DNA from: Somniosus microcephalus
Taxonomy: Eukaryota
Assembly (NCBI GenBank): GCA_052327205.1
Contig: CM126230.1
Coordinates: 17,112,001 to 17,176,000, forward strand
Direction: 5' to 3'
Length of the DNA stretch: 64,000 bases
The notes under the pieces were generated by a model that saw only the letters and a program-made list of their open reading frames with translations, ran no database searches and was not told the DNA's origin. The position numbers were made by a program, and so were the translations under genes. Below, piece after piece: positions 1-61,815 of the stretch (within the stretch, counting starts at the first letter, position 1; each line of letters begins with the position of its first letter).

Positions 1-1407
1 TACATTGATGACTGTATCGGTGCCGTTTCCTGCTCTCGCCCCGAACTTGACAATTTCATTCACTTTGCCTCCAATTTCCACCCTTCCCTCACCTTCACAT
101 GGTCCATCTCTGACTCTTGCCTTCCCTTCCTCGACTTCTCCGTCTCCATCTCTGGGGATAGGTTATCGACCAATATTTACTACAAGCCCACTGACTCCCA
201 CAGCTACCTGGACTACACTTCCTCCCACCCCGCTTCCTGTAAGGACTCTATTCCATTCTCCCAGTTTCTCCGCCTCCGCCGTATCTGCTCCGACGATGCC
301 ACCTTCCACACCAGTGCTTCAGACATGTCTTCCTTTTTCCGCAACCGAGGATTCCCCTCTACCGTGGTTGACACTGCCCTCGACCGTGTCAGTTCTATCT
401 CCCGCACCTCTGCCCTCACCCCTGCCCCTCCCTCCCGGAACCACGATAGGGTTCCCCTTGTCCTCACCTTTCACCCCACCAGCCTCCACATTCAACGGAT
501 CATCCTCCGGCATTTCCGCTACCTCCAAAGTGATCCCACCACCAAACGTATCTTCCCCTCCCCTCCCCTTTCAGCATTCCGCAGGGACCGCTCTCTCCGA
601 GACACCCTAGTCCACTCCTCTATCACCCCTAACAGCCCTTCCCCTTCGCCTGGCACCTTCCCGTGCAAGCGGAGGAGATGTAACACCTGCCCCTATACCT
701 CCCCCCTCCCCACTGTCCAGGGCCCCAAACACCCCTTCCAGGTGAAACAGCGATTTACTTGTACTTCTCGCAATCTAGTATACTGTATTCGCTGCTCACG
801 ATGCGGTCTCCTCTACATTGGGGAGACCAAACGCAGATTGGGTGACCGCTTTGCGGAACACCTCCGTTCAGTCCGTAAGGGTGACCCCGAGCTTCCGGTC
901 GCCTGTCATTTCAATTCACCGCTCCATTCCCACTCGGACCTCACCGTCCTTGGCCTCTTGTACTGTTCCACGGAAGCTCAACGTAAACTCGAGGAACAGC
1001 ACCTCCTCTTCCGATTAGGCACTCTGCAGCCTTCCGGTCTCAATATCGAGTTCAACAATTTCAGATCATAACCTCGGCCCCCATTTCATTTTCACTTATA
1101 TTTTTCCACTCCTTCCTTTCCCCCCCCCCCCCTTTCCTTTTGTTTCTCTCTCACACCTGGCAGCTATCTTTTGCCCTGCCAGTACACTTTACACCTAATC
1201 ACAGCCTATTACCATCTCGTCTAGCTTCTAATCTCTTTTACTTCTTTTGGTTCTTTTATTCTTTTGTCCGATCGCAGCCCTGCCTTCGATCTAGTTCCTT
1301 TTCTCTCCAGTTTTGAAGAAGGGTCAAACCCGAAACGTCAACTCAAATTTCTCTCCACGGATGTTGCCTGACTTGCTGAGTTTTTCCAGCATTTTCTGTT
1401 GTTATTT
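1..1407 (+). mobile_element. Penelope-like retroelement, 3' part (RT C-terminus, GIY-YIG endonuclease, pseudo-LTR tail)
   Basis: Frame 1 is open from 1 to 1071: YIDD at 1-12, LPFLD, YKPTDSHSYL, CKRRRCNTC Zn knuckle, VYCIRC...LYIGET GIY-YIG. The tail contains a hammerhead-like motif. Confidence 0.93.
1309..1343 (+). ncRNA. Minimal type-I hammerhead ribozyme motif with C3U core change
   Basis: Stem I AGTT/AACT; core TTGAAGA; stem II GGGT/ACCC; GAAA; palindromic ACGT stem III; GUC triplet. Confidence 0.65.
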
Positions 1408-3796
1408 ATAATCTAGTGACAAGCCAAACTGAGAGTTTGGGGTGTGCCTGGCCTTCAGTACAGTGGAACCATCAGTGCAAAGTGGTTTTGCTTCTCAGTT
1501 CTGGATACAGAATATGATTCCTTTGATATGACCAACATAACAAAAACAGATTATCTGGTCATTTTCACATTGCTGTTTGTGGGAGCTTGCTGTGCGTAAA
1601 TTGGCTGCACGTTTCCCATATTACAACAGTGACTCCACTTCAGAAGGTACTTCATTGGCTGTAAAGCACTTTGAGACGTCCGGTGGTCGTGAAAGGCGCC
1701 ATATAAAATGCAACTCTTTCTTTTCTTTGATCTGTGCTGGTAACATCTTTCTACGTAACTAGAACCATCATATCTTACGAGTGCTAAGCTTTTAGCCACA
1801 AACTTGTACAGATACACAAATAAGCAAACCTTAACTTTGAAGTAGTTTAGTCATTTCAGTTTTTAGTGTTATTATTAGAATTCTAGAGGATTTTTCAACA
1901 TATTCAGAAATTTAGTCAAATCACTGAATGCTGGATTAAAGAGATAAAGCAACCGATGCTTCATAAAAATAATTTAATAGCACAAAAGTGGTCACATTGT
2001 AGACCAGGAAGCCTCACAGAGGCCTGGACCTGTGTCAAACAGGTCTTGGAGCTTTAATGTGGCTGAATCTTTTTTTGATAGCTTCCCCATCTATTCCAGT
2101 TGGTTGACCTATGTCATATCTGTCCCTAGTTGGTCCAGTCCCATATCAGTAGGAATAATGGAAGCTTTCTTAAACTTCTCTGCAGTATCCCTAGTTAACT
2201 GCATCGCCAGGCAATCTGATCTCAACTAGTAGGAGATGCACAAAGCATTCAAGCTCCAGTTATTCCCTCCCTGTGAGGAAGCGGCTAACCTCTGCTTGAC
2301 CGATCCTCATGGCAGGAACACTGATATTGGTAACTCACCAAAACAATCAATATACAATTTTCAAATCATCTCATTTCAATATGGGTGATGATTCATTACA
2401 CGAAAAGTGAATACTGCCCTATTTCCGTGCTTGAAGAGATTTAGGAGTTGGTTCCTGCAAGACTGATTGATGTTTTAAAGTTTGCTCATCCAGTTACCAT
2501 CCCCAAAATGGAGATGGATGTAGCCACATCACCTCCCATACCGTTGTAGATTTGAAAGGCCCAAGCTATCGTGATGTCTGATTAATTGGACCTTTTGCAT
2601 CAAAATTCTAACCTTTTCTTTGTCCTGCAAGACATTTTTAAATAATCTACCAGTGCAATCAAAGAGCCCAAGAGGAAGTGATTATTCTAAAATAGTTCCG
2701 ATTTAACAATGAAAGGAAGCAATTAGTTTGTGATTAACTTGTCCTATGTCCTGTCTCTCAATAGCCCAGAATGTTGAGACCACATATGTGTGGTTTTTAA
2801 ACTTAATGCAATCATTTCAAGGACTTCAGAAAGCACGGCTCTGATATGTTCCTTTGAATAAGTGCATTTTATTAGTGTGTGTGTCTGGTGCGTGTGTATA
2901 TAATATTTTGAAAGCTGCTTTGAAAACTTTGGAAAGTTAGTCATTGAAGTCTTAAACTTTCTTAAGCACGAGGATAATGTGCTTGTGTTTGGAAATTAGA
3001 GAAAGGCCTGATGCAATGGAAGCAATTGAACTTCCTTTATATTCTTGTCACTTGGCTTTTCTACATATTTGTTCTCTGGATGACACCAGTAGCATTTCTT
3101 GCCCATCCCTAATTGCCCCATGGGCATTAAGAGGCAAACACATAATGTGGGACTGAGTCACATAAGCCAGACCGCAAGAGAAGGCAGGTTCCAGTTTTGT
3201 TTTATTAAAACAGCAATCCAGCAACTTTCATGGTCATTTTCTCTGGTGTCAGCCCACAAATTACTGAATTCAATTTCCCAACTTGCCAAGGATTTGAACT
3301 CATGACCCCTGGGTTGCCAGTCCAGTTGCTGCCGAGGCTTATTTAGTGTATTGATACCAATGCATTATAGGAAAATGTGACGCCAACCTATACAATTTAA
3401 TGTTGTCTTCCATGTTTCTTGTGAGCTTACCCTTAATTCATAACCTTGAGTTACTACACCTCTAGTGACAGACCTGTAACCACCAGTACTCGAGCCTAGG
3501 ATATAAGTGGTAGTGTTATATAGGATGTAAGCAGCAATGAGCCTTTTGTTAATAACAACAACAGCTTCCATTTATTTAGCACCTTTTAACGTAGAAAAAA
3601 TGTCCAATGCGAATAGTATGGGTTGCAACAGTGACGACTTTGTTAGTTTATGCCATGCCACCTTGCCACTGAAAGAAAAGCATGGCAGTAATTGTGGGGG
3701 CATCTATAAATAAAGTGTAAAATTGATGTGCTAACTGATTTAACTTTTACAATATTACAATACCCTAATAACTATTTTTATTCTTTCTCTATAAAG

Positions 3797-3934
3797 GTCA
3801 GAATCCTGACAGCATGCTTATGGGAACAGGCATGAAGGCAAATGGTGCCACAGTAGCACCTGAAGATGCAGAGCCAAGGCTTCACTGTTACTGTTCTGGT
3901 CACTGTGCGACCGAGGAAGGAACAATACATGCAA
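3797..3934 (+). CDS. BMPR1A: BMPR1A coding exon, N-terminal ectodomain (GQNPDSMLMGTGMK...LHCYCSGHC...NNTC); 1 nt short, apparent frameshift
   Basis: Acceptor ttctctataaag|GT at 3796/3797 and donor aa|gtgagt at 3934/3935. Translation matches BMPR1A GQNLDSMLHGTGMK...CYCSGHC, but NNTC lies in a different frame. Confidence 0.9.
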
Positions 3935-4813
3935 GTGAGTTACTGCACTGTCTGTCAGTTGTGGGAGAAAAGCCACAGTTTTCACAATGCAAAAGCTGTA
4001 AAGTGAGGCAGTACGAAAGATGTATTGTCATGAGCATTAATAAAATGGACAAGTGCATTGCTCCTATTAAACTTTTATAATTTTGTTTTATAATTGATGT
4101 TTAGCCAGGGCAATTAATGTTAAAATATTGCAGTCCACCAGGACTAAGTCCATTGCTACATATGTTTAGAAGTGTAGTTGGAATATCTACCCTCTGTTTA
4201 TAGAGTAGTGAAAAGCTATGCAATGTTAACCAAGTGGGAAGAAAAGTGGAGCGATTACGCGTTAAGCTCATAGGTACGATCCTGGTAGCCACGCATTTTA
4301 ATGATTGGTGTAGCTCTGGTCTGTGGTTCAGTTATCGCAGCTTTTACTGAACTGAAAATGCACTCCTGCTACCTCACAACCTTCAGTAAATGGTTTTAAA
4401 TGTTTCTGTTGTTACTTGCCAGTTTTAGCCCTTTTTGTAGCACAGGTTTTTCAGTATGCTGTGATAGTGTCTTCTCTTATGGCAGTGAATTTCATTTAAG
4501 TAATGTCAAATGACGTTTATTATTTTAACTTAAAGCAGCAGCAAATCTAGTTTTAGATCCCTAACTTTTGTTTAATGTGCTTTTGTTTTGGTAGTTGCCT
4601 GCAGATAATGTTGAGACAGTGTTCCATATATAGCAGGCCAGCGACTGCATGTGTCATGGGGGTCACCTGGATGCTAACGCTGCTACACCTTTTAATTGTT
4701 TAGGTTTAGTAGAGAATGTTGTAGAGCAAAGGCTTAGTGTCTTGATTATATATCTCATCTTCATTCTACAACTCCTTAGTGTAACATATCCCACTTTCAT
4801 TATAACATTGTGG

Positions 4814-5014
4814 TGTGGAGATGCCGGTGTTGGACTGGGGTGGACAAATGTAAGAAATCACACAACACCAGGTTATAGTCCAACAGCTTTATTTGAAATC
4901 ACAAGCTTTCGGAGCGCTGCTCCTTCATCACCTGACGAAGGAGCAGCGCTCCGAAAGCTTGTGATTTCCAATAAAACTGTTGGACTATAACCTGGTGTTG
5001 TGTGACTTCTTACA
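4814..5014. mobile_element. Palindromic non-autonomous Penelope pseudo-LTR-derived element with target-site duplication
   Basis: Inverted arms 4847-4930 and 4933-5016; direct repeat CATTATAACATTGTGG at 4798-4813 and 5013-5028. Confidence 0.8.
4927..4965 (+). ncRNA. Minimal type-I hammerhead ribozyme
   Basis: Stem I ATCAC/GTGAT; core CTGACGA 4932-4938; stem II GGAGC/GCTCC; GAAA 4953-4956; palindromic AGCT stem III; CUU triplet ending at 4960. Confidence 0.78.
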
Positions 5015-5280
5015 TTATAACATTGTGGCACACACCTTCTGTTCTTCTGATTCTGACCATCTTCCATTCCACCATTGGTGACAGAGCTTTCCGTTGTTGG
5101 AGCCCTAAAATCTGGTATTGTCTCGCTAAGTTGCCCTCCTTGCTACATCACTTATCACCTTTGAAATCCTCCTCAAAACCTTCCTGTTTAACCACGCCTT
5201 CCCTCACCTCCCCTATTTCTTCTACTCCTGCCCGTTGTCCATTCTCTGTTCTTCGGATGGTTACTATGTTAAAGGCACTA

Positions 5281-5619
5281 CAGGAAACTCTTTGGTATCC
5301 GGCACCGATGGGACCAGGATGGTGCCGGTTGATTAAAAATTCCGGATGACGGAGAGGGTTATCTACCGAGGCTATTTTTAACAAACAAAAATTTTAAAAA
5401 TCAAGAAATGTGCAGTATACAGTAATTGGACTGCCGACAGCGCCAAGAAGCCGAGTAGTGGCAGTTTGAAGAACTACCCCCACTGACTAACTCGGCCACC
5501 GCGGGAGACTCGGACTCGGCAACATTTCTGGTTATTGAGGTGTTGTTTTCGGAGTATGAATTTTGCTGGTTAATGGAGAATTCCGGATATTTAGGTGCCG
5601 TTTAAACGAGAGTTTCCTG
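5281..5619 (+). mobile_element. Tc1/mariner-pogo-type MITE (family A, divergent interior)
   Basis: TIR CAGGAAACTC...GAGTTTCCTG, flanked by TA on both sides. Confidence 0.85.
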
Positions 5620-7453
5620 TACCTAGATACAAGTTTTTGTTAAGTTTAACTGTTATAAGACTAGTGTACCTTTGCTTGCTAAAATTGTCGTTCTACTACC
5701 AAAAGCTGATGATCAAAATTCTCCTTTTAAATTATATATTTACAAACAGAAATAATGTCAAATAAATTCAGAAAATGGTTTAAATTGATAGTATCATTAT
5801 TGAATATTGATGTCATGTTGGGCTTAAACTTAACCGTGGGCCATGAGATCACACGACCATGTCAATGTCCACAGGAGAAAAAAAACACCAAGCCGATTTT
5901 AAAAGGTTGCCAGACTGTCACCCCCTCTTGTCGATAGTCCCAGCACCCTCCATCATATTATAAAAATATCATATGTTCAAGTAAAAATAAGAGTGGATGC
6001 TTCATAGTTTTAAAATTAATTCCTTTCTATTGAAGCATTTACAGCATATTTTTGGTTCTTTCTCCCATTATTTATTTGCCTCAGAGATACAAGGCATTTT
6101 TCTGTCCTCTCATTTCTAGTTGGAATTAATTCCTTTATTTAAAATCTTTTTGGGAAATATTACTCTATCCCGAAACAACAACTTCCTTAATAGCATTTTT
6201 AAATAATCCGCAACGAAAACTCAGCAGTTGTGTCCAATGGTCCTTACCCCAGCCCACCTTTAGTCTGCAGCCATCTCTCCATAAATTCTCTGACTTTGCC
6301 TGACTTGTGGCGTGAAGGCAGGTTTTCTCCAATAATAATAATTTGTATTTAGTTGTATAGTTTTGATAATTCTATACAGCTGCACCAAATATAACATTTT
6401 GCATACCCCTGAGTTTTCAGTCCCGTTCTTGCTATGGTCAAGATTAAATCCAGTCAAAAAATGTAAATGAAACCACGCCACACTCCCTCCTGCTGTGTAC
6501 TGCGCTATGGGTAATATAGGTCTGTCTGATTGATTGATTGTTCGTTTACTGGATCAGTTTACCTATGGCTGTGAGCCTATGGTGAGGAGTAGAACTGTGT
6601 ATTTGTCCCACTGGCACTTAACGCAATGTCACATAAATAGCCTCACGATGTAGGCTGTTCAGGTGATTATACTAACATCCCAGTTACAGAATTTTTAGAG
6701 CTATGACATGCACATTTTGAAGCCGAGAGGGAGTATGCTTCACAATACTTGATGGTATGAGGTGTGGCTTACCTACTGAGCAGCGTAGGAGATGCTTACT
6801 TGCTTGGCATTTTACAACCATAATGAAACAGCTTTATGTTGCACTAAACTTGTTGCTTTGTAGTCATTTTTTGTTTCTACTAAAAAATTGAGGGGAAATG
6901 TCACAGAAGTTGGGACGGGATGAATACAAATGATGAATACAGTTGAATACTTGGATAGGTATATGGAAAAGCTTACACCTGAAAAAGGTGAAGTACGATT
7001 GTCTTATTGACATTTTTATTGCAGCTGTCAGTTTTTGAAATCTAATTTAAGTTCTTCAGCGGATTGAATCCTCCACATGCTGGTGGAGTTTTCTGCCCTG
7101 GGCCACACACTATGCTGAGAGGAGCGAACACACCGAGCTCTTTTGAGATGTGATGACACATTATGGGGCCTTGTACATGTGTTTTCCTCCCTGTCACAAG
7201 ACATTATAAAAGTCAAAATCCTGCCACCTCCGCCCTCGCCCCCAGCAAGGGTTTTAGACTGCTTTCCACCTCTGGCACTGTCAATATCTCGAACTGCTTG
7301 ACTGATTGATATCTCTTTTGTGACTATTTTGCATGACCATTAAATTGTTCTTTTAAGTAGATTTCTGTTTTTTTGTTATTTTCTTCATATTTACCTCTGT
7401 GTCCTTTCCAAAATGTCTTCTGCATGCATCAAATATCCTTGAAGGAGAGTCTT

Positions 7454-8300
7454 AAGTCTGGAACTTTCTCAACAGGGGCGGGGTGCCTCCGAGGCGGGCG
7501 GGAAACCTGGGAGGCCGGGTTTCCCACAGGCCCTGCCGACTTTAATGGCAGGGCCTGATTAGAATGTGAGGCCTCGGCATCCCGCCCGCAGCCAGCCAGA
7601 TTGAGCGGCTGGCTAGCTGCGGGTGGGTAGGCATCAGATGCGAGGGGTCGGTCCAAGGTGGGGATCGGGGGGGGGGGGGGTCAGACGGGTATCGGGAGGG
7701 GGTTGGAGGATCGGCAGGGGCTCGGGGATCGGAAGGGGAGTTTGATCGGGGATCGGCAAGGGCTAGGTCAGGGATTGGAGTCGGCCAGGAATCGGGAGGG
7801 GGGGTCGAGGATCACGGGTGGGGCGGGGGGCTTCGGCCGGGGATCGGCAGGGGGCTAGAGAGGATTGGGGCCAGCCACCGGAGGATTGTGGCCAGCCTCA
7901 GCATCATCGGTGGCGTGGTGGGAGAGTGCCTGGGGAGGCAATCAAGGCTGCGAGGGGTGGGTTAGGTCGGGACCCTGGATCCAGGAGGTAGATATTAAGC
8001 CACTTGCCTCCTGGATGCAGTAGTCCCCACTTTGGTTTAACTGCTGGGTTTTACGAACCCGTCCACAGGTAGTTAAATTCAAAATGGAGGTGAAAAAAAG
8101 AGGCTTCCAGCATCATTATATTTAAATTAAGGTACCGCCCCCTGGGAACGGGTTGGCTGCTCACCCCCATCCCACCTCCGTTAAAACCGGAAGTGGGCGG
8201 GTTGGAGGTGCAATCGGGTCGGGAATTCCATTTTTAACAATTTAACTACCGCCATGCTCCAAACCCACCCGCTTTTTTTTTAAGGGGAAAATTCCGGCCT
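7454..8300. mobile_element. GC-rich non-autonomous TIR element (family C)
   Basis: Degenerate TIR (AAGTCTGGAACTTTC / GAAAATTCCGGCCT); G-rich core; internal blocks shared with 13022-13700. Confidence 0.55.
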
Positions 8301-11167
8301 AATTTTCTCTGTGGCCGATAGGTATGATCTCTGTTAAAGTGCCTACCTGCGAGACATGACATAGTGAACTGTAATGTGTGCCTTAGCTTCTCTATGGGAA
8401 CGCACACAGTCCAATTCAGCAAGATAATTCAAGGCTACAAAGATTTGTAGGGCTCACCTGGCTTCCAGCAGTAGTGACCCAATGCCTGTCAGTAACTGCT
8501 TTATTAGGCACCACTGAACTGTTGTGCTCTTCAAATCTTTGTCTCATGACCTCATCCTGCTTAAACACAAACCTTTGAAAACTAGCAGCTCTTAAGAGGA
8601 ATCAGTGATCTGATTCTCCTGCAGACTGGCATTGGAGAATGCGACATTGAGAATGGAATCTTCTTCAACAACTATCTTTTCTGCCTTTTATATTGGGCCC
8701 ACTTTCAGCACTGGCCCCATCCTCAGCTCTGTTCCGACACCTGACTCCAACCCCGCCCTGGTACCGATTCCAACTTCTATGCCAAGTCTGTCCTTTGTAT
8801 CAATACAGCTCCCACTCCCCAAGTTCACCCAGCCAGCTTGCCTCTTAACTGTTGTATGGGGTAGTGATGTGGGGTTCCGTTCAGCACAATCCCATTGGTG
8901 CAGACCAAAGAACCGTATCAATGGCATTCGGTCCCAATTTAATTTCAAACTCTTAAGCCGTCAAAAGGAAATTCCATACATTACTAAACAATTTGAGAAC
9001 ACAACGCTGGGAGAGCTTCTTCGAGGGACACATTAGTTTCAAAGGGGAACTCCCTCACTTAGCTCTTCTGTATAGTCCATTCTCTCAGCTGGCATCTCTG
9101 TTTTATAGTTTCCAGCGTGTAAACATTCTCTTGCTACCAATTGAACTCAAGCATCTACTTGTACAGCTTCTACCTACCAGATCTTCATCTAGTTTACCTG
9201 CTACTACCCTAACCAATTCATCTTCATGGGCTAGAGATTTGTCTTCCTTTACTGATTTGTCTTCCCCTGAATAGTAACATAGTTTTATACCCCAACTGGT
9301 GGCAAGTGTGATGAATTTTAATGCTGCTCAGCCAGTATTGATTCCCCCTCCAGAAGTCACATCTCAAATTACATCCACTGGGAATCGGAATTAGAGTTGA
9401 GAGGAAAGGATGTTGTTGCAGTATCTTTCTGATCCAGTTCGACAGGACTAGAAGATAAGGAAGGATGCTGTTTGTTTTTATGCCAGGATTGTACAGAGTC
9501 CAGATGTATCCAGTACAGACACATCTCAATTGAGGATTGAGCCATTACTCCAAATAGACCAAGTTTGTCCTGCATCTTTCCTTGGGTGCTATCAACTGGA
9601 AACAGGAAGGGTGTGCAAAAGTTAGTCCTGGTGGCAGATAACTTCTATTGGGTCCATAGTGCCAGTAGAGCCTCCCTTGTTCTGCACCTCTTGAGCATTC
9701 ATTGTGGTTGCTTCAGTACTGCAGAAATTCAGGAAGCAAATTCTATTCCTCCAGAGCATAAACTGAGATGCTTAGACTTGGGGGCATCAGATGTTTGCAC
9801 AGGACACATCTCATTGAAAGTAGCCTTTCACTAGACTTACTGTGGTGATTTTTGCTACCAGAGAGCTTTTCAGCTGGAAGCCTTTGCTAAAGTCATCATG
9901 GAATACTTTAATGAACAAGTGGTGTGCTTGATTGAGGATCCAGTCAAATACGAAAACGGGTTGTCAAGTATCCTTATGTTGCCTGCTCCCCTGTACATCT
10001 GCTCCTAAGATTCTTGCCCCAAATGGTGCCTCATTTTCATTTAAATAAAAAAATTATCATTACTAATTTCTGTTCCACCCCCCTTTCTTCACCAGTCAGA
10101 ATTTGATGCGTTTTCTTATTGCCAACCGTACAGAATCCCTCTGCAAACCTAGTCAACTATTTGCCTCCTACCGCTGCAGGACATTGGGCAAACTGATTAC
10201 AAAATTGTGGTTTCCCAATGGCCTATAAGAATGCTTTTTGCACTGTTAACACTTTGCTTGCAGGCACTGTGAAAGCCATTCCACCCAATCCACAGTTACT
10301 TCTCGTACAGCTTTAAAGCAAGGTATTTGTTAAGCAGCTGCTTAATCACAACACCATAAAACACTTTTACCTGAGGCTTCACTGCCCAGTGAGTTTTATT
10401 GGCTGTAATTGCATCCTCTTCTCAAGGCCTCCCCTCCCTCTAGTCTTGTATGACTTTGATCGTCTCCAGTGATATGCAGAGACTGTGATCTTCCAAAGAC
10501 AGTTTACCTACCATTGGTAGTCATCTTCTGGAAAGTATCTTTCAAGTACAGTATCAGGTGCCTTCTCAACCAGCTCCTTTGGCTTTGATGGTCATCAGCC
10601 CCATTATGGGCACTAGTGGGCAAAATAGATAGCAAGCAAGGGATAAGGGCTTTCCATTTTATAATATGTAGGGTGGGGGGAAAAAATACATGGATACAAC
10701 CCCACACTGTGACATCATTACCTCTCAAAACATTGAGGTGATCTCTATGTATGCCGCTTTACCAGGAAAGCATGATCTGGTGTGGATCATTCCAGCCACA
10801 TGAAGGATACCTCTTGGAGGAAGGTTCAACTGAAGAGAGGTAATCTCTTTGTGACATGCATGCGCATATGAAGGTTGACCTCCCAGTTCTCAGCCTGTGC
10901 ATGCTTGACTTTCTTTCCTTCTCCCCATCTCCCACCACCCCCCCCCCCCCCAAAATACTTCTACATACTGAAGCTGTCATCCTTGTCCTCAGCATACATT
11001 TGGCTCTGATTCTCTAACTGTGTCTCCAGGCACATGGTATATGTCTATATTTTTCAATGTGTTCAATTAGTACCAAAAGCTAACTGATAAAACTGACACA
11101 TCCACTTAATTTTGCTTACCTAAATATCACATCAAGTCTTACTAATTTATTTATTTTTATAATGCAG

Positions 11168-11270
11168 AACAAATGGAAACTGTTTTGCCATTATTGAAGA
11201 GGACGAAAATGGAGAAATTGGCTTCAGCTCTGGCTGCATGAGGTTAGAAGGAGCAGATTTCCAGTGCAAG
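11168..11270 (+). CDS. BMPR1A: BMPR1A exon, ectodomain ([34 protein letters not shown])
   Basis: atgcag|A ... AAG|gtaag; 103 nt; activin-receptor-type Cys pattern and DFQC ligand-binding motif. Confidence 0.96.
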
Positions 11271-13021
11271 GTAAGACCAACACTGTAAAGTAAGGATCTC
11301 AATCTCTACTATAGCATTGTATTATAATATGTACCACTCTTCATGAATAGCCAGCCTGATGACTCAATTATGGAACTATAGGCATATCTGCAAAAAAATA
11401 GTCCTGTATGCCTTATTGTTTTCAGTTTTACTTTTTTAAGTTAATGCAAGATTTAAAATGTTCTGACCTGCCCCATATTTTAGGGAACATGAATGTTTGT
11501 ATTGAGTTGGCATAACCTAACACAGGTCACTATTTAGTCTCTTCATTGTTTTCTTTTGCATCGAGTCTGTTATCTACATTATGTCACTTTTTTACTTTTC
11601 ACAGCACTTCCAATTGAAAAGCATACAGATTAGTCATAGAGTTAGAGTTATACAGCACAGAAAGAGGCCCTTCGGCCCATCGCGTCCGCGCCGGCCATCA
11701 AGCCTTATCTAATCTAATCCCATTTTCCAGCATTTAGTCCGTAGCCTTGTATGCTATGGCATTTCAAGTGCTCATCCAAATGCTCTTGAATGTTGTGAGG
11801 GTTCCTGCCTCTACCACCCTTATCCTCTAATTGGTTGTCTACACATCATCCACTGCACTCTGATCACTAAATTGGACTAATCCATTCTTGCCACCTCATC
11901 TTCTCTTCAAATCTATAAGCAAGGTTTTGTATTCTGGCACCCGAGGATAAGAAATTTACCAACTCATTAATGATGGAAGATGCTCAATTCATTGCTGGTC
12001 CTCTTTGTCAGTACTAAAGCTTTACTCCTGTAATTTGTTCAAGGTACAGAACGCCCAGCAGGACTAGACTGAGATCCTATGCAGCAAGCCACTTAAATAT
12101 GATTCTCTCAGAAGCACACTTCCATAATTGGATATTTGTTTCTTCTGAATTGCACCTCCAAAATTGGTCAAAAACTACACTATGGTTCATCCAATCATAC
12201 CTATGGAGTAACTTTGTCCTGGATACAGTCATTTGGACCTAAACAATTGGAAACCCATTTAAGCTACCCAGTGAAGATCCTCTGAAAAAGAGAAACGGTA
12301 TAAACCCATTGTTTCAAAATGTGCCCCCCATCCTATATCCCTTCCTGTCCCTCACCCACTCATCCTCCCCTTCCCAAAATAAAAGCTCGATCCTGCGCAG
12401 AAGTACAGAATGTATCTCCCTATGGATTGCACTGTGAATTAACTATTCTAATAGTAGATGAAAACTGAGATGAAAAGCAAAAGTTAAAATTTCCTACAAA
12501 GTGCATATGATATGTATTGTACTAGGGAAGGACAGGCCTTTTATATAACTCAGACAACCTATCTATATTCTTCTCCCAGGTACTGTACAGCGGGCCTTCT
12601 TTATTTTTTAATTATACTTGGATATACTCTAGTTCATGTTTTTAAAACTTTTAGTTTTTGGTTTGCTAAATAGAAAGAAATCTTTGACTACTGTTAATCC
12701 AACACATTGTTCAGAAAGCTATCTAGCAGGTGAGTTCCATAACTGTATGAATTGTAATGGTTTGAGAGACTTCTATATTATCTTTATTTATGGCATATAT
12801 ACACGGTGAATCTGTTTTGGAAGAAGATTTGTTCTAGGTGTTAATTATACGTGGTCAAAGCATTAATAGATATGCAAGGTTTGAATGAGCTGTGAACATC
12901 TCATCTGTGAACAAAAATGATTCTTTGTGTTTTTGAACTTGATTGACAGCTCTTTGGAGTGGGAAATATACTGCAGACTTTTCTTTACCTTTAGTTCAGT
13001 TTAATTCCTGGAATTGACACT

Positions 13022-26977: not shown

Positions 26978-27077
26978 GATTCAACAAAAGTGAGAAAACG
27001 GAGAACCATTGAGTGCTGCAAGACCGACTTCTGTAACAAGGATTTGCACCCAACGCTTACTCCAATTTCTAATTCAG
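26978..27077 (+). CDS. BMPR1A: BMPR1A exon, Cys box ([27 protein letters not shown])
   Basis: cctgtag|GAT ... TCAG|gtaag; CCx4CN cysteine box; phase compatible with neighbours. Confidence 0.96.
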
Positions 27078-28553: not shown

Positions 28554-28653
28554 ATGGGCTATTTGAGGGTGATGTCCACCGGTTAGGCCTGCTGATCTCA
28601 CTGATCGTCTGCATCTTTGTCCTGATTATAATCACAACTGCTTTCTACTTCAG
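28554..28653 (+). CDS. BMPR1A: BMPR1A exon, transmembrane helix (GLFEGDVHRLGLLISLIVCIFVLIIITTAFYF)
   Basis: aaacag|AT ... CAG|gtaag; 100 nt; hydrophobic segment; phases fit. Confidence 0.94.
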
Positions 28654-33757: not shown

Positions 33758-33909
33758 TCTATTGAAGACTGAGCTGACTTAAAAGCATAGACATTTTCAC
33801 TGATGTGAGTAAGGGACAGTGGTAGCTCCAGAATCTATTGAAGACTGAGCTGACTTAAAAGCATAGACATTTTCACTGATGTGAGTAAGGGACAGTGGTA
33901 GCTCCAGAA
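33758..33909. repeat. Perfect 76-bp tandem duplication
   Basis: 33758-33833 is identical to 33834-33909. Confidence 0.95.
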
Positions 33910-36093: not shown

Positions 36094-36309
<216 letters not shown>

Positions 36310-37049: not shown

Positions 37050-38701
37050 GAGAGAGCAACCGAAGGAGGGAGGGAAAGAGCAACACAAACGAGAGGGAGA
37101 GGGAGCAGCACAAACGAGAGGGAGAGAGAGAGCAGCACAGACGAGCGGGAGAGAGAGAGCAGCACAGACGAGAGGGAGAGGGAGCAGCACAAACGAGAGG
37201 GAGAGAGAGAGCAGCACAGACGAGAGGGAGAGAGAGAGCAGCACAGACGAGAGGGAGAGAGAGCAGCACAAACGAGGAGAGAGAGAGAGCAGCACAAACG
37301 AGGAGAGAGAGAGAGCAGCACAAACGAGGAGAGAGAGAGAGAGCAGCACAAACGAGGAGAGAGAGAGAGAGCAGCACAAACGAGGAGAGAGAGAGAGCAG
37401 CACAAACGAGAGAGAGAGAGCAGCACAAACGAGGAGAGAGAGAGCAGCACAAACGAGAGGGAGAGAGAGAGCAGCACAAATGAGAGGGAGAGAGGGAGCA
37501 GCACAAACGAGAGGGAGAGAGAGCAACACAAACGAGAGGGAGAGAGAGAGCAACACAAACGAGGAGAGAGAGAGCAGCACAAACGAGAGGGAGAGAGAGC
37601 AACACAAACGAGAGGGAGAGAGAGAGCAGCACAAACGAGAGGGAGAGAGAGCAACACAAACGAAGAGAGAGAGAGAGAGCAGCACAAACGAGAGGGAGAG
37701 GGAGCAGCAAAAACGAGGAGAGAGCAACACAAACGAGAGGGAGAGAGAGAGCAGCAAAAATGAGAGAGCAGCACAAACGAGGAGAGAGAGAGCAGCACAA
37801 ACGAGGAGAGAGACAGCAGCACAAATGAGAGGGAGAGAGAGAGCAGCACAAACGAGGAGAGAGAGAGCGGCACAAACGAGAGGGAGAGAGAGAGCAGCAC
37901 AAACGAGGAGAGAGACAGCAGCACAAATGAGAGGGAGAGAGAGAGCAGCAAAAATGAGGAGAGAGAGAGCAGCACAAACGAGGAGAGAGAGCAGCACAAA
38001 CGAGAGGGAGAGAGAGAGCAGCACAAACGAGAAGGAGAGAGAGCAGCACAAACGAGAGGGAGAGAGAGAGCAGCACAAACGAGAGGGAGAGAGAGCAGCA
38101 CAAACGAGAGGGAGAGAGAGAGCAACACAAACGAGAGGGAGAGAGAGAGCAACACAAACGAGGAGAGAGAGAGCAGCACAAACGAGAGGGAGAGAGAGCA
38201 ACACAAGCGAGAGAGAGAGCAGCACGAACGAGAGGGAGAGAGAGCAGCACAAACGAGGAGAGAGACAGCAGCACAAATGAGAGGGAGAGAGAGCAGCAAA
38301 AACGAGGAGAGAGAGAGCAGCACAAACGAGGAGAGAGAGCAGCACAAACGAGAGGGAGAGAGAGCAGCACAAACGAGAGGGAGAGAGAGCAGCACAAACG
38401 AGAGGGAGAGAGAGAGCAGCACAAACGAGAGGGAGAGAGAGAGCAACACAAACGAGAGGGAGAGAGAGAGCAACACAAACGAGGAGAGAGAGAGCAGCAC
38501 AAACGAGAGGGAGAGAGAGCAGCACAAACGAGAGGGAGCAGCACAAATGAGAGGGAGAGAGAGAGAGCAGCACAAACGAGGAGAGAGAGAGCAGCACAAA
38601 CGAAGAGAGAGAGAGCAGCAAAAACGAGAAGGAGAGAGAGAGCAGCACAAACGAAGAGAGAGAGCAGCAAAAACGAGAAGGAGAGAGAGAGCAGCACAAA
38701 C
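37050..38701. repeat. Purine-rich minisatellite, unit about (GA)n-GCAGCACAAACGAG, 22-32 bp
   Basis: Dozens of units are directly visible; almost no T on the + strand. Confidence 0.97.
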
Positions 38702-40780: not shown

Positions 40781-41078
40781 GATTTATTGCTGCAGACATT
40801 GAAGGCAAAGGCTCGTCGACATGGCTGTACCTGATTACAGATTACCATGAGAATGGCTCGCTGTATGACTACCTGAAGTGCACTGTGCTTGATACCAAAG
40901 CCCTACTAAAGTTGGCCTATTCTGCTGCTAGCGGTCTCTGTCACCTCCACACAGAAATCTACGGCACCCAAGGCAAGCCTGCTATTGCGCATCGTGACCT
41001 AAAGAGCAAAAACATCCTGGTGAAAAAGAATGGAACCTGTAGCATTGCTGACTTGGGCCTAACTGTGAAATTCAACAG
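40781..41078 (+). CDS. BMPR1A: BMPR1A exon, L45 loop to DLG motif ([14 protein letters not shown]...HRDLKSKN...DLGLTVKFN)
   Basis: ttaccag|GA ... AACAG|gtaat; 298 nt; HRD and DLG motifs. Confidence 0.98.
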
Positions 41079-44523: not shown

Positions 44524-44699
44524 TGACACAAACGAGGTTGATATCCCACTGAATACACGAGTGGGCACCAAGCGATACATGGCACCAGAGGTACTAGATG
44601 AGAGCCTCAACAAGAACCAATTCCAGGCTTATTTGATGGCAGATATATACAGCTTTGGCCTAGTCATATGGGAGATGTCACGTCGCTGTCTTACAGGAG
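44524..44699 (+). CDS. BMPR1A: BMPR1A exon, activation segment ([22 protein letters not shown]...)
   Basis: cacag|T ... GGAG|gtatg; 176 nt; GTKRYMAPE motif. Confidence 0.98.
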
Positions 44700-45932: not shown

Positions 45933-46063
45933 GTATTGTAGAAGACTACCAGTTGCCATATTATGACATGGTGCCAAACGATCCCTCCTATGAGGATATG
46001 AGGGAAGTGACGTGTGTTAAATGCCTCCGTCCGACAGTTTCTAACCGGTGGAACAGTGATGAG
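45933..46063 (+). CDS. BMPR1A: BMPR1A exon ([26 protein letters not shown]...NRWNSDE)
   Basis: cctgcag|GT ... GAG|gtgag; 131 nt. Confidence 0.97.
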
Positions 46064-47396: not shown

Positions 47397-47645
<249 letters not shown>

Positions 47646-52357: not shown

Positions 52358-52749
52358 TTAAGATGTTTTAAATAACAGAAATCCACCAAATGTTGTCTCC
52401 GGCGGAGTCCGTTGAACTACAGACCCTTGTGTCACTTCTACCCACACGTGCTGTCCTTTACTGAGCTCGAGGATGGCATAGCCCCAAACCAGGCTGCTGT
52501 GCTGCTGCTTTTTTCTGCTATTCTGAAGCGTGATTGTTTGGTTGCCATCAACCAAAAGATAACCAAGTCCAGGCCCATGGCCAAACTCCATGGTAACCAC
52601 AAACACATAGATGCCTTTGAGCGGAGCTTTGAAGTAATCTTTTTCCAGTGAATAGCCATCTCCGTAGTTCAGGAAGATCTGGTCGAACTTCAAAATCCTG
52701 TTTGTTTCTGAATTGTTGGAAAGTCCCACGAAAAATGCAGCCTGGAATT
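52358..52749 (-). CDS. MMRN2: Multimerin-2, last exon, globular C1q domain
   Basis: ttgtttag|AA acceptor, phase-compatible with the upstream exon. FDQIFLNYGDGY...YFKAPLKGIYVF...TTFGGFLLFKTS* is an EMILIN/multimerin-type C1q domain. Confidence 0.92.
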
Positions 52750-52794
52750 CTAAACAAAAAAAAGAGCAAAAGGAAATCAAGCCAAGCAACTGGT

Positions 52795-53030
52795 TACTGT
52801 TTTTTGTTAGTGCTGTTGGTTGAAGGATAAATATTGGCCAGGACACCAGAACTCCCTGCTCTTTTAATAGTGCCGTGGGATCTTTTACGGCTACCTGAGA
52901 GGGCAAATGGAGACTCAGTTTAACATCTCGTCCAAAAGACAGCGCCTCTGTCAGTGCTGCACTGAAGTGTCAGCCTGGATTATGTGCTCAAGTTTCTCGA
53001 ATGGGGCTCGAACCCACAACCATCTGACGG
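52795..53030 (-). mobile_element. SacSINE1-like DeuSINE fragment next to the MMRN2 last-exon acceptor
   Basis: Reverse complement of the head and core of 53880-54322. Confidence 0.7.
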
Positions 53031-54570: not shown

Positions 54571-54974
54571 AAAAATGTCCCAAGGCACTTCAGAGGCATA
54601 AAATGATAAAAAAAATAGATGTCAAGACAAAGAAGCAGATATTAGGAGAGGTGACCAAAAACATGGTCAAAGAGGTAAAAGAAAATAAAGACTTGCATTT
54701 ATATAGTACCAATCATGACCACAGGATGTCCCAAAGTGGTTTACAGCCAATTAAGTACTTTTGAAGTGTAGTCACTGTTGTAATGTAGGTAGGTTTTAAA
54801 GGAGGAGAGGGAGGTGGAGAGGCAGAGGGGTTGAGGGAGGGAGTTCCACAGCGTGGATCCTAGACGGCTGACGGCTGCCAATGGTGGGCAATGGGAGGAG
54901 GATGCACCAAAGGCCAGAGAGGAACAGAGAATTTGGATGGATTGTAGAGCTAGAGGAGGTTAACGCGATAGGGG

Positions 54975-56590
54975 GGACAAGGCGGAAATGGTGTTAGGGA
55001 AATTGACGGGATTGAAGGCCGATAAATCCCCAGGGCCTGATAATCTACATCCTAGGGTACTTAAGGAAGTGGCTCTAGAAATAGTAGATGCATTGCTGGT
55101 CATCTTCCAAAATACTATAGACTCTGGAATAGTTCCCATGGATTGGAGGGTAGCTAATGTTACCCCACTATTCAAAAAAGGTGGTAGAGAGAAAACACGG
55201 AATTATAGACCGGTAAGCCTGACATCGGTAGTAGGGAAAATGCTAGAGTCCATTATAAAAGATGTAATAGCAGAGCACTTGGAAAACAGTGACAGGATCG
55301 GACAAAGTCAACATGGATTTACAAAAGGTAAATCATGCTTGACTAATCGACTGGAATTTTTTGAGGATGTAACTGGTAGAATAGATAAGGGAGAACCAGT
55401 GGATGTGGTGTATTTGGACTTTCAGAAGGCTTTTGATAAGGTCCTGCATAAGAGATTAGCGTGCAAAGTTAAAGCACATGGGATTGGGGGTAAGGTACTG
55501 TCTTGGACAGAGAACTGGTTGGCAGACAGGAAGCAAAGAGTTGGAATAAATGGGTCTTTTTCCGAGTGGCAGGCAATGACTAGTGAGGTACCGCAGGATC
55601 GGTGCTAGGACCCCAGTTATTCACAGTATATATAAATGATCTAGACGAGGGAACTAGATGTAATATCTCCAAGTTTGCAGACAACACAAAGCTGGGTGGG
55701 CGTGTGTGCTGTGAGGAGGATGCAGAGAAACTCCAGTATGATTTGGACAGGTTGGGTGATTGGGCAGATGCATGGCAAATGCAGTATAATGTGGATAAAT
55801 GCAAGGTTATCCACTTCGATGGCAAAAACAGGAAGACATTATTATCTGAACGGCAATAGATTGGGAGAAGGGGAAGTGCAACGAGACCTGGGTGTCCTTG
55901 TGCACCAGTTGCTGAAGGTAAGCATGCAGGTGCAGCAGGCGGTTAAGAAGGCAAATGGTATGTTGGCCTTCATAGCGAGAGGATTCGAGTACAGGAGCAA
56001 GGATGTCTTGCTGCAGTTGTACAGGGCCTTGGTGAGACCACATCTTGAGTATTGTGTGCAGTTTTGGTCGCCTTATCTGAGGAAGGATGTTCTTGCCATG
56101 GAGGGAGTGCAGCGAAGATTCACCAGACTGATAACCTGGGATGGCAGGAATGACGTATGAAGAGAGATTGGGTCAATTAGGCTTATATTCGCTGGAGTTT
56201 AGAAGAATGAGAAGGGATCTCATTGAAACTTATAAAATTCTAACAGGACTAGACAGACTAGATGCAGGAAGGATGTTCCTGATGGCCGGGGAGTCCAGAA
56301 GCAGGGGTCACAGTCTAAGGATAAGGGGTAGGCCATTTAGGACAGAAATGAGGAGGAATTTCTTCACCCAGAGAGTGGCGAACCTGTGGAATTCTCAACC
56401 ACAGAAGGCAGTAGAGGCCAATTCATTAAATATATTCAAGAAGGAGTTAGATATATTTCTAAAGGCTAAAGGGATATGGGGAGAAGGCAGGGACCGGGTA
56501 CTGAATTTGGATGATCAGCCATGATCTCATTGAATGGTGGAACAGGCTCGAGGGGCCGAATGGCCTACTCCTGCTCCTATCTTCTATGTC
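54975..56590 (+). mobile_element. CR1 LINE, 5'-truncated, frameshifted RT
   Basis: KSPGPDNLHPRVLKE, YLDFQKAFDKV, RPHLEYCVQFWSPY; CR1 3' UTR and tail. Confidence 0.95.
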
Positions 56591-56761: not shown

Positions 56762-59165
56762 TACATAAGAACATAAGAAGTAGGAGCAGGAGTAGGCCAT
56801 ACGGCCCCTCGGGCCTGCTCCACCATTCAATAGGATCATGGCTGATCCGAACCTAGACTCACGTCCACTTCCCTGCCCGCTCCCCGTAACCCCTAATTCC
56901 CTTATCAGCTAGGAAACTCTTATCTCCGTTTTAAATTTATTTAATGTCGCAGCTTCCACAGTTCTCTGAGGTAGCAAATTCCATAGATTTACTACCCTCT
57001 GAGTGAAGAAGTTTCTCCTCATCTCAGTTTTGAAAGGGCAGCCCCTTATTCTAAGATTATGCCCCCTAGTTCTAGTCTCACCCATCAGTGGAAACATCCT
57101 CACCGCATCCACCCGATCAAGCCCCCTCACAATCTTATATGTTTCGGTAAGATCGCCTCTCATTCTTCTGAATTCCAATGAGTAGAGGCCCAACCTACTC
57201 AACCTTTCCTCATAAGTCAACCCCCTCCGGAATCAACCGAGTGAACCTTCTCTGAACTGCCTCGAGAGCAAGTATATCTTTTCTTAAATATGGAAACCAA
57301 AACTGTACGCAGTATTCCAGGTGTGGCCTCACCAGTACCCTGTATAACTGAAGCAAGACTTCCTTGCTTTTATACTCCATCCCCCTTGCAATAAAAGCCA
57401 AGATTCCATTGGCCTTCCTGATCACCTGCTGTACCTGCATACTAACCTTCTGTGTTTCATACACCAGGACCCCCAGATCCCTTTGTACTGTAGCACTTTG
57501 CAGTTACTCTCCATTTAGATAATAACTTGCTCTTTGATTTTTTTCTGCCAAAGTGCATAACCTCACACTTTCCAACATTATATTCCATCTGCCAAATTTC
57601 TGCCCACTCACTTAGCCTGTCTATGTCCTTTTGCAGGCTTTTTATGTCCTCCTCACTCACTGCTTTCCCTCCCATCTTTGTATCGTCGGCAAACTTGGAT
57701 ACGTTGCACTCAGTCCCTTCCTCCAAATCGTTAATATAGACTGTAAAGAGTTGGGGTCCCAGCACTGACCCCTGCGGAACACCACTAGTCACTGATTGCC
57801 AACCCGAGAATGAACCATTTATCCCAACTCTCTGTTTTCTGTTAGATAGCCAATCTTCCACCCATGCCAGTATATTACTCTCAATCCTGTGATTTTTTAT
57901 CTTGTGCAGTAATCTTTTGTGTGGCACCTTGTCAAATGCCTTTTGGAAGTCCAAATACACCACATTCACTGGTTCCCCTTTATCCACCCTGTTTGTTATG
58001 TCCTCAAAGAATTCGAGCAAATTTGTCAAACATGACTTCCCCTTCATAAAACCATGCTGACTCTGTCCGATTAAATTATGCTTATCCAAATGTCCTGTTA
58101 CTGCTTCCTTAATAATGGACTCCAACATTTTACCAACCACAGATGTTAGGCTAACTGGTCTATAGTTTCCAGCCTTTTGTCTACTTCCCTTTTTAAATAA
58201 GGGCGTTACATTAGCAGTTTTCCAATCTGCTGGGACCTTGCCTGAATCCAGGGAGTTTTGGAAAATTACCACTAATGCATCCACAATCCCTACCGCTACT
58301 TCTCTCAAGACCCTAGGATGTAAGCCATCAGGTCCAGGGGATTTATCTGCCTTTAGTCCCATTATCTTACCAAGTACCACCTCCTTAGTGATTTTAATCG
58401 TGTTTAGCTCCTCCCCCCCCCTATAGCCCCCTGTTTGTCCAGTGTTGTGATATTTTTAGTGTCCTCTACTGTAAAGGCTGATACAAAATATTTGTTCAGC
58501 GTTTTTGCCATCTCCATGTTCCCCACCACTAATTTCCTGGTCTCGTCCTCTAAGGGACCAACATTCACTTTAGCCACCCTTTTTCTTTTTGTATAACTGT
58601 AGAAACTCTTGCTATCTGTTTTTATATTTTTTGCTAGTTTACTTTCATAATCTATCTTCCCTTTCTTAATTAATCTTTTAGTTATTCTTTGCTGTCTTTT
58701 AAATGCTTCCCAATCTTCTATCCTCCCACTAGATTTGGCTACTTTATATGCCCTTGTTTTCAGTCGGATACTATCCTTTATTACTTTACTTAGCCACGGA
58801 TGGCTGTCTTTTACGCCCCTTTTTCCTCAGTGGAATATATTTTTCTTGAAAGTTGTGAAATATCTCCTTGAATGTACACCACTGCTCATGTACCATCTTA
58901 CACTTTAATCTATTTTCCCAGTCCACTTTAGTCAACTCTGCTCTCATTCCTTCATAGTCTCCTTTATTTAAGCTTAGTACGCTGGTTTAAGATCCAACTC
59001 TCTCACCCTCCAACTGAATTTGGAATTTAACCATGTTGTGGTCACTCATTCCAAGGGGATCCTTTACTAGGACATTTTTTATTAATCCTGTCTCATTACA
59101 CAGGACCAGATCTAAGATTGCCTGCCCCCTGGTTGGTTCAGTAACATACTGCTCAAGGAACCCGT
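56762..59165 (-). mobile_element. CR1 LINE, 5'-truncated
   Basis: ORF 57457-58380 with GVPQGSVLGP and FADD; tail (TTCTTATG)n at about 56762-56780. Confidence 0.95.
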
Positions 59166-59790
59166 GGGCAGATGCGGGCGATGTTACGGAGATGGAAGTG
59201 ATACAGAGTACATAGGGCTGGAAGCTCAGCTCGGGGTCAAATAGGAGGCTGAGATTGCAAACAGTTTGGTTCAACCTGAGACAATGGCCAGAGGGAGGGG
59301 GGGGGATGGAATCTGTGTCGAGGGTACAAAGATTGGGTAGGGTCCAAAGACAATATCTTCCCAATGTTGAACTGGGGGAAATTGTGGCTCATCCAAGACT
59401 GAATATGGACAAGCAATCTGACAACAGAGAGGCAGTGGATGGGTCGAGGGAAGTGGTGGAGAGGTCGAGCTGGGTGTATGTGGAAGCTGACCACAAGTCT
59501 GCAGATGTTGTCGTGAAGGGGCAGAATGTAGATGAGGAAGAAGAGGGAACCAAGGATAGCTCATTGGAAGCCTCCAGAGGTAATGGTGCAAGAGTGTGAA
59601 GAGAAGCCATTTCTGGAAATGCTCTGGCTATGATCACATAGGTAAGAGTAGAACTAAGTGAGGGCAATCCCACCTGGAAAACAGAGGAAAGGCTTTGGAG
59701 AAGGAGGGTGAGCAATCGTGTCAAAGGCTGCAGAGGAGTTGAGGAGGAATAATGCACCACAGTTACATTCACAAAGAACGATGCACTTAC

Positions 59791-61815
59791 CCTGTACAGT
59801 TGGGATGCTATTTTTGTTGACTGCAGTTGAAGCATTACCATAAATCTCCAGCTGTTTGCCACCATGGTGACTTTGCCTGTGCTGTTTCCTCATTCGCTTT
59901 GAGCCAAAGCCTCCTCGTCCAATACGGAATGTCCCATTAGAAAGGCTGTCAACACTGCCAGTGAGCTTCTGAAACACAGAGATGTGACTTTCAAGAAACA
60001 GTTTCAAAGATGACACGTCTGACTGCAGAGTCTCCACTGACTTTGTAAACAGTTCCTTCATCTGTTCCAAGCTCCGATTGTAGTAAGGGTCTTTGTTATT
60101 ACAATGAGACTCCAGTTTAATTACTTTCAAGTTCAACATCTCAATATCTTTTTTAATGATTGATATTTCACTGGCGTCATACTTTGAATCATCCATCTGT
60201 TGTTCTTCTACTGCCTCATGGTTTGGTTCCATATCTTCAAGGGAACGCTGGTCTCTGTCATCTACTTCTGAAGAGCTTTCCTTCAAAAAGTTTTCTTCGT
60301 CATCAAAACCAATTAATTCCCTACTTTCATCATTTGACCTGTCTTCTTCAAGCACCTGCACCCTCTTGTTGAGGCTTTCCAAGATTATTTTATGGGTAGC
60401 AAGGCCTTTCTCTGTCTCATTAAGGTTTTGATACAAAGTGCTAACAGAAAGCTCCTGGAGCTCTATTGCACCCTCAGGTGTGATCTCCAATATGTCTTGT
60501 CCCAACAAACTCTCCAGAACGACTGTGTGCCTCAAAGCATCTTCCAAAAGGGAACTGAAGGAGCTATTGAGGTATTTGATGTGAGCGTCCATGGTAGTAT
60601 CCAACTTCTTCAAGTGGCTAATTTCTCTCATAACCATGGTGGAATTCTTCTTTAGTATTGTGATGTCTTCAGTTAAAGCGTTGTTTTCTTCTTGCTGCAA
60701 GTACTGGAGGTCCTGGGCTTGTTGACGAACTTGTTGCAAAGCCATGAACAGATCTTGAACAGAATCATTTAAGTTACTGCTCAGGTCCAGCTCTTGCTGT
60801 TTAACACCATTCAGATCAAAGTACATCTTGTCCATAAAGTTACTGGCATTCCTCAGGTTATCAACAACCAAGCCATAATCCACAAGTAACTTTTGACAGT
60901 CGCAAAGCTGGTCATCTTCTAGCGTGCTATACAACCGCCGACTCAGTTCTTGCACTTTATTGTCAAGGTTGTAAAAAAGTTCCTCGTGACCTGAACTTCG
61001 ATGGTTAAAGGAAACATTCAGTCCCAAAAGGTTCTCTGTAAAACCCACACTGGTCTCTTTCAGTTTTTGGTTCATCTCGCTCTTCAGGCCAGCCACCAGT
61101 TGTGTGCAACGTGATTCCTGCTTCTCCGTCTGTTGTTGGAAATCGGTCAGCTGATTTGATGCAGGATCACATAACCCGCAGATTCTCTTTAAATGTGTAA
61201 GATTCCTTGAATGGACCTCAACAGTTGCACTGAGTTGGTCAAAGTCCTGTTTTGACGTTCCCATGTCTTGGTGGACAGCTTTCGAGTTGCACGATGAACA
61301 TGGTTTTGGACCTTTGAGGTCAGCAATCTTTGCTAGACTTTGATTTAAAGTGTAGACTTCTTGCCATAGTCTGTCTTGGTCTTTCCTCATCTCAGCTGTT
61401 GTGTTATCTAGAAGATGCGATTTCATCTGAATCATCTTCTGGCTGCGCTTGACTTTTAGGTCTGTCTCTGTTTTAATCGTAGTTAGGTTGTGGTCAAGGT
61501 TAACCTTCTGAGCATGCAATTCTTCATTTATTTTCTGTTGTTGATCATTCAACATGTTCTCAATTTTCTGCAGTTGCTCTGTGTTTGCGTCCAGTTTTGA
61601 TTGTAACTTAGTGCTGAATTCCTCCAGTTCCCTTTGAGGCATTCGCTGTTTCGAGAGCTCATTAATATTCTTCCTATTGACCTCTATACCTTGCGATAGA
61701 TTGCGCACCATATCGGACAGGTCCTGCAGGCTTTTGTTGAAGCTTGTCCATAAGGAATGAAGGTGCTGTCTCAAGAAATTTTCAATATGAGGCTTTATAT
61801 GAAGCACTGGAAATT
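59791..61815 (-). CDS. MMRN2: Multimerin-2, large coiled-coil exon
   Basis: 2025-nt open exon with acceptor ttttacag| at 61816 and donor CAGG|gtaagt at 59790. Heptad-rich sequence with many N-glycosylation sequons and a basic cluster at the end. No EGF domain before C1q (unlike MMRN1), and adjacent to BMPR1A. Confidence 0.9.

Follow-up and report, generated by a model that had tools for sequence, protein, structure and literature searches.

Apparent one-base frameshift in Somniosus microcephalus BMPR1A is most likely a run-length consensus error of the assembly

Introduction

Is the BMPR1A gene of Somniosus microcephalus broken in the animal, or only in its assembly? The window analyzed here, a 64,000-nucleotide stretch of assembly GCA_052327205.1 (contig CM126230.1, positions 17,112,001 to 17,176,000 of the forward strand), contains ten BMPR1A coding exons on the + strand, extending from 3797 to the stop codon at 47645 and separated by nine introns, all of them GT-AG. 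As assembled, the first of these exons is flanked by AG and GT and measures 138 nt. Its first two bases complete a Gly codon and its last two bases belong to a Lys codon, so its phases (1 and 2) demand a length of 3n+1. In the assembly, 14 nt follow the last Cys codon of CYCSGHC before AAC AAT ACA TGC begins, and the literal 3934-11168 splice runs into a TGA at 11239-11241, residue 70 of the model. Splicing instead at a GT at 3939 leaves an open frame reading CATEEGTIHASETNGNC, with the loss of one Cys. A sequence-only reading of this locus had made the same calculations, all of which proved right (on paper, this includes the reopened frame and the dropped disulfide Cys of the 3939 donor), and took a consensus error as its leading guess, with a heterozygous allele or early pseudogenisation as alternatives. 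Mouse Bmpr1a nulls die as embryos, and for this reason it would have been remarkable to find BMPR1A truly lost in a living shark.

Features of the window to which we refer are as follows.

3711..4380, no strand: local patch of six single-base indels relative to the X3 contig (3711 +A, 3918 +G, 3973 -1, 4024 +T, 4111 +A, 4380 -1)
3797..3934, + strand: first visible BMPR1A coding exon, ectodomain start (CYCSGHC...NNTC), 138 nt assembled, 139 nt in reads
3919..3920, + strand: missing-base site, GG assembled versus GGG in every covering run (codons GAA GGG AAC, E-G-N)
3935..3940, + strand: normal donor GTGAGT, used, and a weak GT overlapping it at 3939 for which use was not observed (consensus matches, X14, X22)
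11168..11270, + strand: BMPR1A exon, ectodomain (TNGNC...FQCK), with G-F-S at 11220-11228
26978..27077, + strand: BMPR1A exon, ectodomain Cys knot (CCKTDFCN)
28554..28653, + strand: BMPR1A exon, transmembrane helix
30919..31057, + strand: BMPR1A exon, juxtamembrane region and GS motif (SGSGSG)
36094..36286, + strand: BMPR1A kinase exon, with P-S-A at 36208-36216 and H-E-S toward its end, both common to chondrichthyans
40781..41078, + strand: BMPR1A kinase exon, with the L45 loop (40792-40824), HRDLKSKN and, toward its end, DLGLT; 100% identical to Heptranchias
44524..44699, + strand: BMPR1A kinase exon (GTKRYMAPE)
45933..46063, + strand: BMPR1A kinase exon
47520..47645, + strand: last BMPR1A coding exon, to the stop codon (SQDIKI*)

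Results

We modeled the gene with one G added to the first exon, which gives the codons GAA GGG AAC and the peptide CATEEGNNTC. The resulting model has 500 aa over ten exons, and the natural stop comes first. Exons 2-10 as assembled encode 454 aa with zero stops, bearing out the earlier statement that the other exons are open. A search with the largest kinase exon identified relatives in two clusters of chondrichthyan proteins that bear the name BMPR1A. The model is identical to Heptranchias perlo BMPR1A (XP_067828793.1) at 496/500 aa (99.2%) and to Cetorhinus maximus BMPR1A (XP_078386768.1) at 492/500 aa; identity is 93-98% to the remaining chondrichthyan BMPR1A and 76-82% to six bony-vertebrate BMPR1A. 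Heptranchias BMPR1A has the same CATEEGNNTC spacer and the same kinase motifs, and differs from the model by H30L, T87G, L88F and G89S. The Cys-to-NNTC spacer is 5 residues long in 18/18 chondrichthyan and 6/6 bony-vertebrate BMPR1A tested; the five codons that the sequence-only reading had ascribed to BMPR1A, and the orthologue comparison that it proposed, thus agree with these proteins. Bony-vertebrate BMPR1A (coelacanth, lungfish, mouse, frog, fishes) agrees with the model in how its domains are arranged (activin-receptor ectodomain, GS motif, kinase) and in its 5-residue spacer, and its catalytic HRDLKSKN and DLG are also kept in the shark model. Pfam families PF01064, PF08515 and PF07714 were matched on the 99.2% identical Heptranchias protein, and the matching exons are present in the window.

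In a midpoint-rooted tree of 22 rows, built from exons 2-10 as assembled and without an ACVR1 or TGFBR1 outgroup, the model fell in a chondrichthyan clade (100/100) within a 15-row BMPR1A clade (100/99), separate from a 6-row clade holding BMPR1B. The end branch of the shark gene was 0.011. Judged by these sequence comparisons, the gene is an ordinary, intact chondrichthyan BMPR1A (ALK3) orthologue. A search of window positions 1-3796 for the signal-peptide exon gave chance-level matches only, and this exon probably lies upstream of the window.

We compared the first exon with public sequencing runs. Matching against window positions 3300-4400 found 24 runs, three of them with 0.81 of its words, and 7 of the 24 were compared. 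The comparisons spanned 3600-11400 at a likeness of 90 (X1, X2, X21 and X22) or 3640-4420 at a likeness of 85 (X3, X4, X14 and again X22). An extra G behind 3918 was present in six of the six covering runs; the GG form appeared in none, bearing in mind that contigs lose rarer alleles and prove presence, never absence. The G was found at whole depth in a single contig in X1 (organism A; 14.9 of 14.9) and X2 (organism B; 6.67 of 6.67), and likewise in one contig each in X3 (22.2 of 22.2; sharing its sample with X2), X4 (10.2 of 10.2; organism C) and X14 (23 of 23; a spliced contig, also organism C). The library of X1-X3 is unrecorded, and their intron coverage is even, as for genomic DNA; X14 was typed as RNA by guess only, though its contig is without introns. 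RNA reads of X22 (organism B, from another study than X2 and X3) carried the G in 3/3 cases at a likeness of 85, all with one start and possibly from one molecule, compared with 0 reads with G at depth 3 at the stricter likeness of 90. The remaining run, the RNA run X21, of which about a quarter was read, did not cover 3919-3920. The G-carrying runs divide into four contig sets that look genomic, a spliced contig and RNA reads; they span three organism labels and four studies, and may or may not stem from the assembled individual. Organism C has two listed substitutions in this exon, at 3885 and 3912, and neither changes the protein.

Taken together, these findings indicate that the shortage of one G is confined to the assembly. 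Since every covering run carries the missing G, an assembly error is the most likely cause of the frameshift, in agreement with the leading guess of the sequence-only reading. That reading had named reads or cDNA with a 139-nt exon as the result that would mark an assembly error; we looked for it, and both the reads and the X14 spliced contig displayed such an exon. Of the two places where it suggested that one extra G would restore the frame, GAA-GGG (the run at 3919-3920) was correct and GCG-GAC was not.

The missing G is one of several differences in a short interval. Over 3640-4420 (781 bases), the window and X3, whose contig is the nearest to it, differ by 0 substitutions and six one-base gaps. 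All six alter the length of a short run; with 46.6% of the bases there sitting in runs of at least 2, the rough chance of six of six is 0.01. Were all six true differences, the chance that every one is an indel would be 1e-6 to 7e-4, given an assumed indel share of 0.1-0.3. Five of the six recur under a different organism label, X1 sharing those at 3711, 3918 and 4380 and X4 those at 3918, 4024, 4111 and 4380, and it is therefore the window that is the odd one out. The sixth, at 3973, may be a true polymorphism: here X4 matches the window and X1 carries other insertions. Outside the patch, X2 is gap-free in 4991-5290 and 5600-7508, and X1 is gap-free in 8221-10891 and 10931-11400. The errors are thus local to 3711-4380 rather than window-wide, as also follows from exons 2-10 and a 735-aa - strand frame both being open.

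Run-length (homopolymer) errors of long-read assemblies have been described as a source of false frameshifts (PMC12007338, PMC8812927). The present case resembles them in that a single-base change in a short run breaks a conserved gene, is not seen in the other sequence data and is clustered with similar errors; it is unlike them in that the errors are confined to 3711-4380.

These observations bear on the possibility that one of the two alleles of the assembled animal has a genuine 1-bp deletion and that the assembly kept the haplotype with this null allele, an allele of a kind likely removed by nonsense-mediated decay. Contigs cannot reveal the absence of a second allele, and the closest runs differ from the window at a few further positions, such that they may represent another animal or the other haplotype. 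Against this, the haplotype would have to carry, within 670 bp, at least 5 single-base indels of its own and not one substitution, the X3 contig (1586 bases) spans 3640-4420 in one piece with no second contig found at the site, and the short form occurs in no run. We consider heterozygosity very improbable, in keeping with which the allelic alternative of the sequence-only reading can be called unlikely; its other alternative, pseudogenisation, is rejected on the evidence given below.

Next to the patch, at 4811-5621, lies a very high-copy repeat with a summed contig depth of several hundred thousand and many RNA reads on both strands; it contains 84-nt inverted arms at 4847-4930 and 4933-5016. 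Two further repeats occupy BMPR1A introns. A perfect two-copy tandem duplication of 76 nt at 33758-33909 is either a recent duplication or an assembly fault, and a GA-rich minisatellite in a kinase intron (37070-38701; period about 27, some 65 copies) gives long spurious ORFs on both strands. Beyond the gene, - strand frames at 52358-52969 and 59654-61861 belong to a neighboring gene arranged tail to tail with BMPR1A. One frame has a C1q domain (Pfam PF00386), and the open 735-aa frame is without a Pfam match; by mammalian gene order, this neighbor is probably MMRN2. Two broken reverse-transcriptase fragments in opposite orientation (54964-56160 on the + strand and 57457-58455 on the - strand; Pfam RVT_1) are, we presume, CR1-type LINEs.

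We also asked which donor the exon uses. The X14 contig (4305 bases) covers 3794-3934 with 142 letters plus one gap; past 3934 it continues with 30 letters from the start of the exon at 11168, and upstream of 3794 the letters are different, as an upstream exon would give. X14 accordingly carries a 139-nt exon joined at the normal donor (3934-11168). By a simple count of consensus matches, used in place of a trained model, the normal donor scores 8/9, within the 6-8/9 range of the nine real donors of the gene, compared with 4/9 for the donor at 3939. X22 has depth in 3910-3936 and zero depth in 3937-3963, and therefore no X22 read extends to 3938. Use of the 3939 donor was seen in no read or contig over 3640-4420. 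The broader comparison (3600-11400) was swamped by high-copy repeats, and the exon junction was absent among the best 15 of its 257 joints.

On paper, a real and fixed deletion could be tolerated if splicing from the GT at 3939 reopened the frame, yielding a receptor minus one ectodomain disulfide. The poor match of this donor, the exit of X14 at 3934 and the zero depth of X22 beyond 3936 all speak against such a rescue; moreover, the Cys that it would lose (C97) is invariant in 27/27 aligned receptors, and the deletion itself is missing from the reads. We regard rescue through 3939 as extremely improbable; the one junction observed, in the X14 contig, was 3934-11168. A micro-intron inside the exon was also considered and rejected, the 11-nt GT...AG stretch being too short for splicing judging from the sequence and general knowledge.

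The kinase of the model differs from that of bony-vertebrate BMPR1A at four motifs: F-P-S-A replaces F-F-T-T and kin, H-E-S replaces H-E-N or H-D-N, the L45 loop reads IEGKGSSTW in place of IKGTGSWTQ and kin, and DLGLT stands for DLGLA. The sequence-only reading had taken these unusual residues as a hint of pseudogenisation. F-P-S-A, H-E-S, an IEGKGSSTW or IESKGSSTW loop and DLGLT were all found in 17/17 chondrichthyan BMPR1A proteins (14 named species, covering sharks, rays and a chimaera, plus two unnamed proteins, with Callorhinchus represented twice), and so they do not reflect decay. Among 120 proteins of other receptors, counting readable motifs, the same four were found in 0/98, 0/101, 0/116 and 0/105. 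The 17 proteins were chosen via similarity to this gene and cover at least 15 of the 51 main-cluster members, and a chondrichthyan with an ordinary loop could therefore be missed.

An early pseudogene or decaying duplicate, marked by both the frameshift and the unusual kinase residues, would be in keeping with the departures at these four motifs and with three adjacent ectodomain residues private to the lineage. Several properties of the gene speak against this view. Beyond the identity of the motifs across 17/17 proteins, exons 2-10 form 454 aa free of stops on an end branch of only 0.011, all nine introns keep GT-AG, the largest kinase exon is 100% identical to that of Heptranchias, the G-restored model is 99.2% identical to a named orthologue, and the disabling lesion is absent from the runs, all covering ones carrying the G. 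That those reads might stem from a second, intact copy is spoken against by the letter-for-letter match of the runs to the window introns. The probability that we assign to a pseudogene is negligible.

The private ectodomain residues are G-F-S at 11220-11228, where 18/18 chondrichthyan proteins have T-L-G or T-H-G; they account for 3 of the 4 differences from Heptranchias. A change from T-L-G to G-F-S takes at least 4 substitutions. Over 8858-11400, X2 shows 1 substitution; over 10931-11400, X1 shows no gap and at most 3 unlisted substitutions. The G-F-S stretch was absent among the 15 of 51 main-cluster members listed. It is probably real, and a compensated small indel pair is a possible origin.

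In an alignment, the shark L45 loop falls opposite ADNKDNGTW of TGFBR1, which has been named as the L45 loop responsible for Smad specificity (PMC3510168). The L45 loops of ALK3 and ALK6 are described as not differing, and may alone decide the Smad branch (PMC6953019). Human BMPR1B (3mdy) and Mustelus BMPR1B both have the loop IKGTGSWTQ, and the identity with BMPR1B described for mammalian ALK3/ALK6 (PMC6953019) does not extend to the shark loop. A paper on the ALK2 structure (PMC3481300) gives the packing context of the L45 and GS loops, in an account of that context that holds nothing on these residues. The loop also varies among the other receptors that we fetched (IKGTGAFTQ in 19, INGTGASTQ in 6), and cyprinid and Polypterus BMPR1A show such forms. 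Given that the loop change is clade-wide and that ray-finned fish BMPR1A is also divergent, the orthology assignment stands. Within the tree, a long chondrichthyan stem (0.25) leads to short tips (0.003-0.062), a shape that reads as a burst of change followed by strong constraint. A literature search of titles and abstract openings found no publication on shark BMPR1A kinase changes, which is weak evidence of absence.

Discussion

Findings discussed above indicate that the frameshift is almost certainly a run-length consensus error of the assembly within an intact shark BMPR1A, and not a property of the animal. Under this explanation, the patch at 3711-4380 would have been left unpolished in a long-read consensus. 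A fixed loss of BMPR1A is excluded by the data. From what is known of the family, the gene product would act as a normal type I receptor: it would bind BMP jointly with a type II receptor, be phosphorylated in its GS box and pass the signal to R-Smads. In practical terms, automatic annotation will break BMPR1A at the patch, and isolated frameshifts in this genome should be checked against reads before gene loss is called.

The kinase changes raise a separate question. It is conceivable that BMPR1A was remodeled once on the cartilaginous-fish stem and then frozen, the remodeled parts being the beta3-alphaC P-S-A, H-E-S, a recharged Smad-selecting L45 loop and DLGLT, and that Smad choice or basal activity was thereby altered, with a bearing on the skeleton. 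The variability of the loop in other receptors and the unchanged catalytic motifs are a counterpoint to a functional shift, and we view this proposal, drawn from sequence comparison, as unlikely. The clade-wide remodeling of L45 and the N-lobe touches on differences in BMP signaling in cartilaginous fishes. If the proposal is true, sharks, rays and chimaeras would possess an altered BMP receptor, which could be relevant to why bone does not replace their cartilage.
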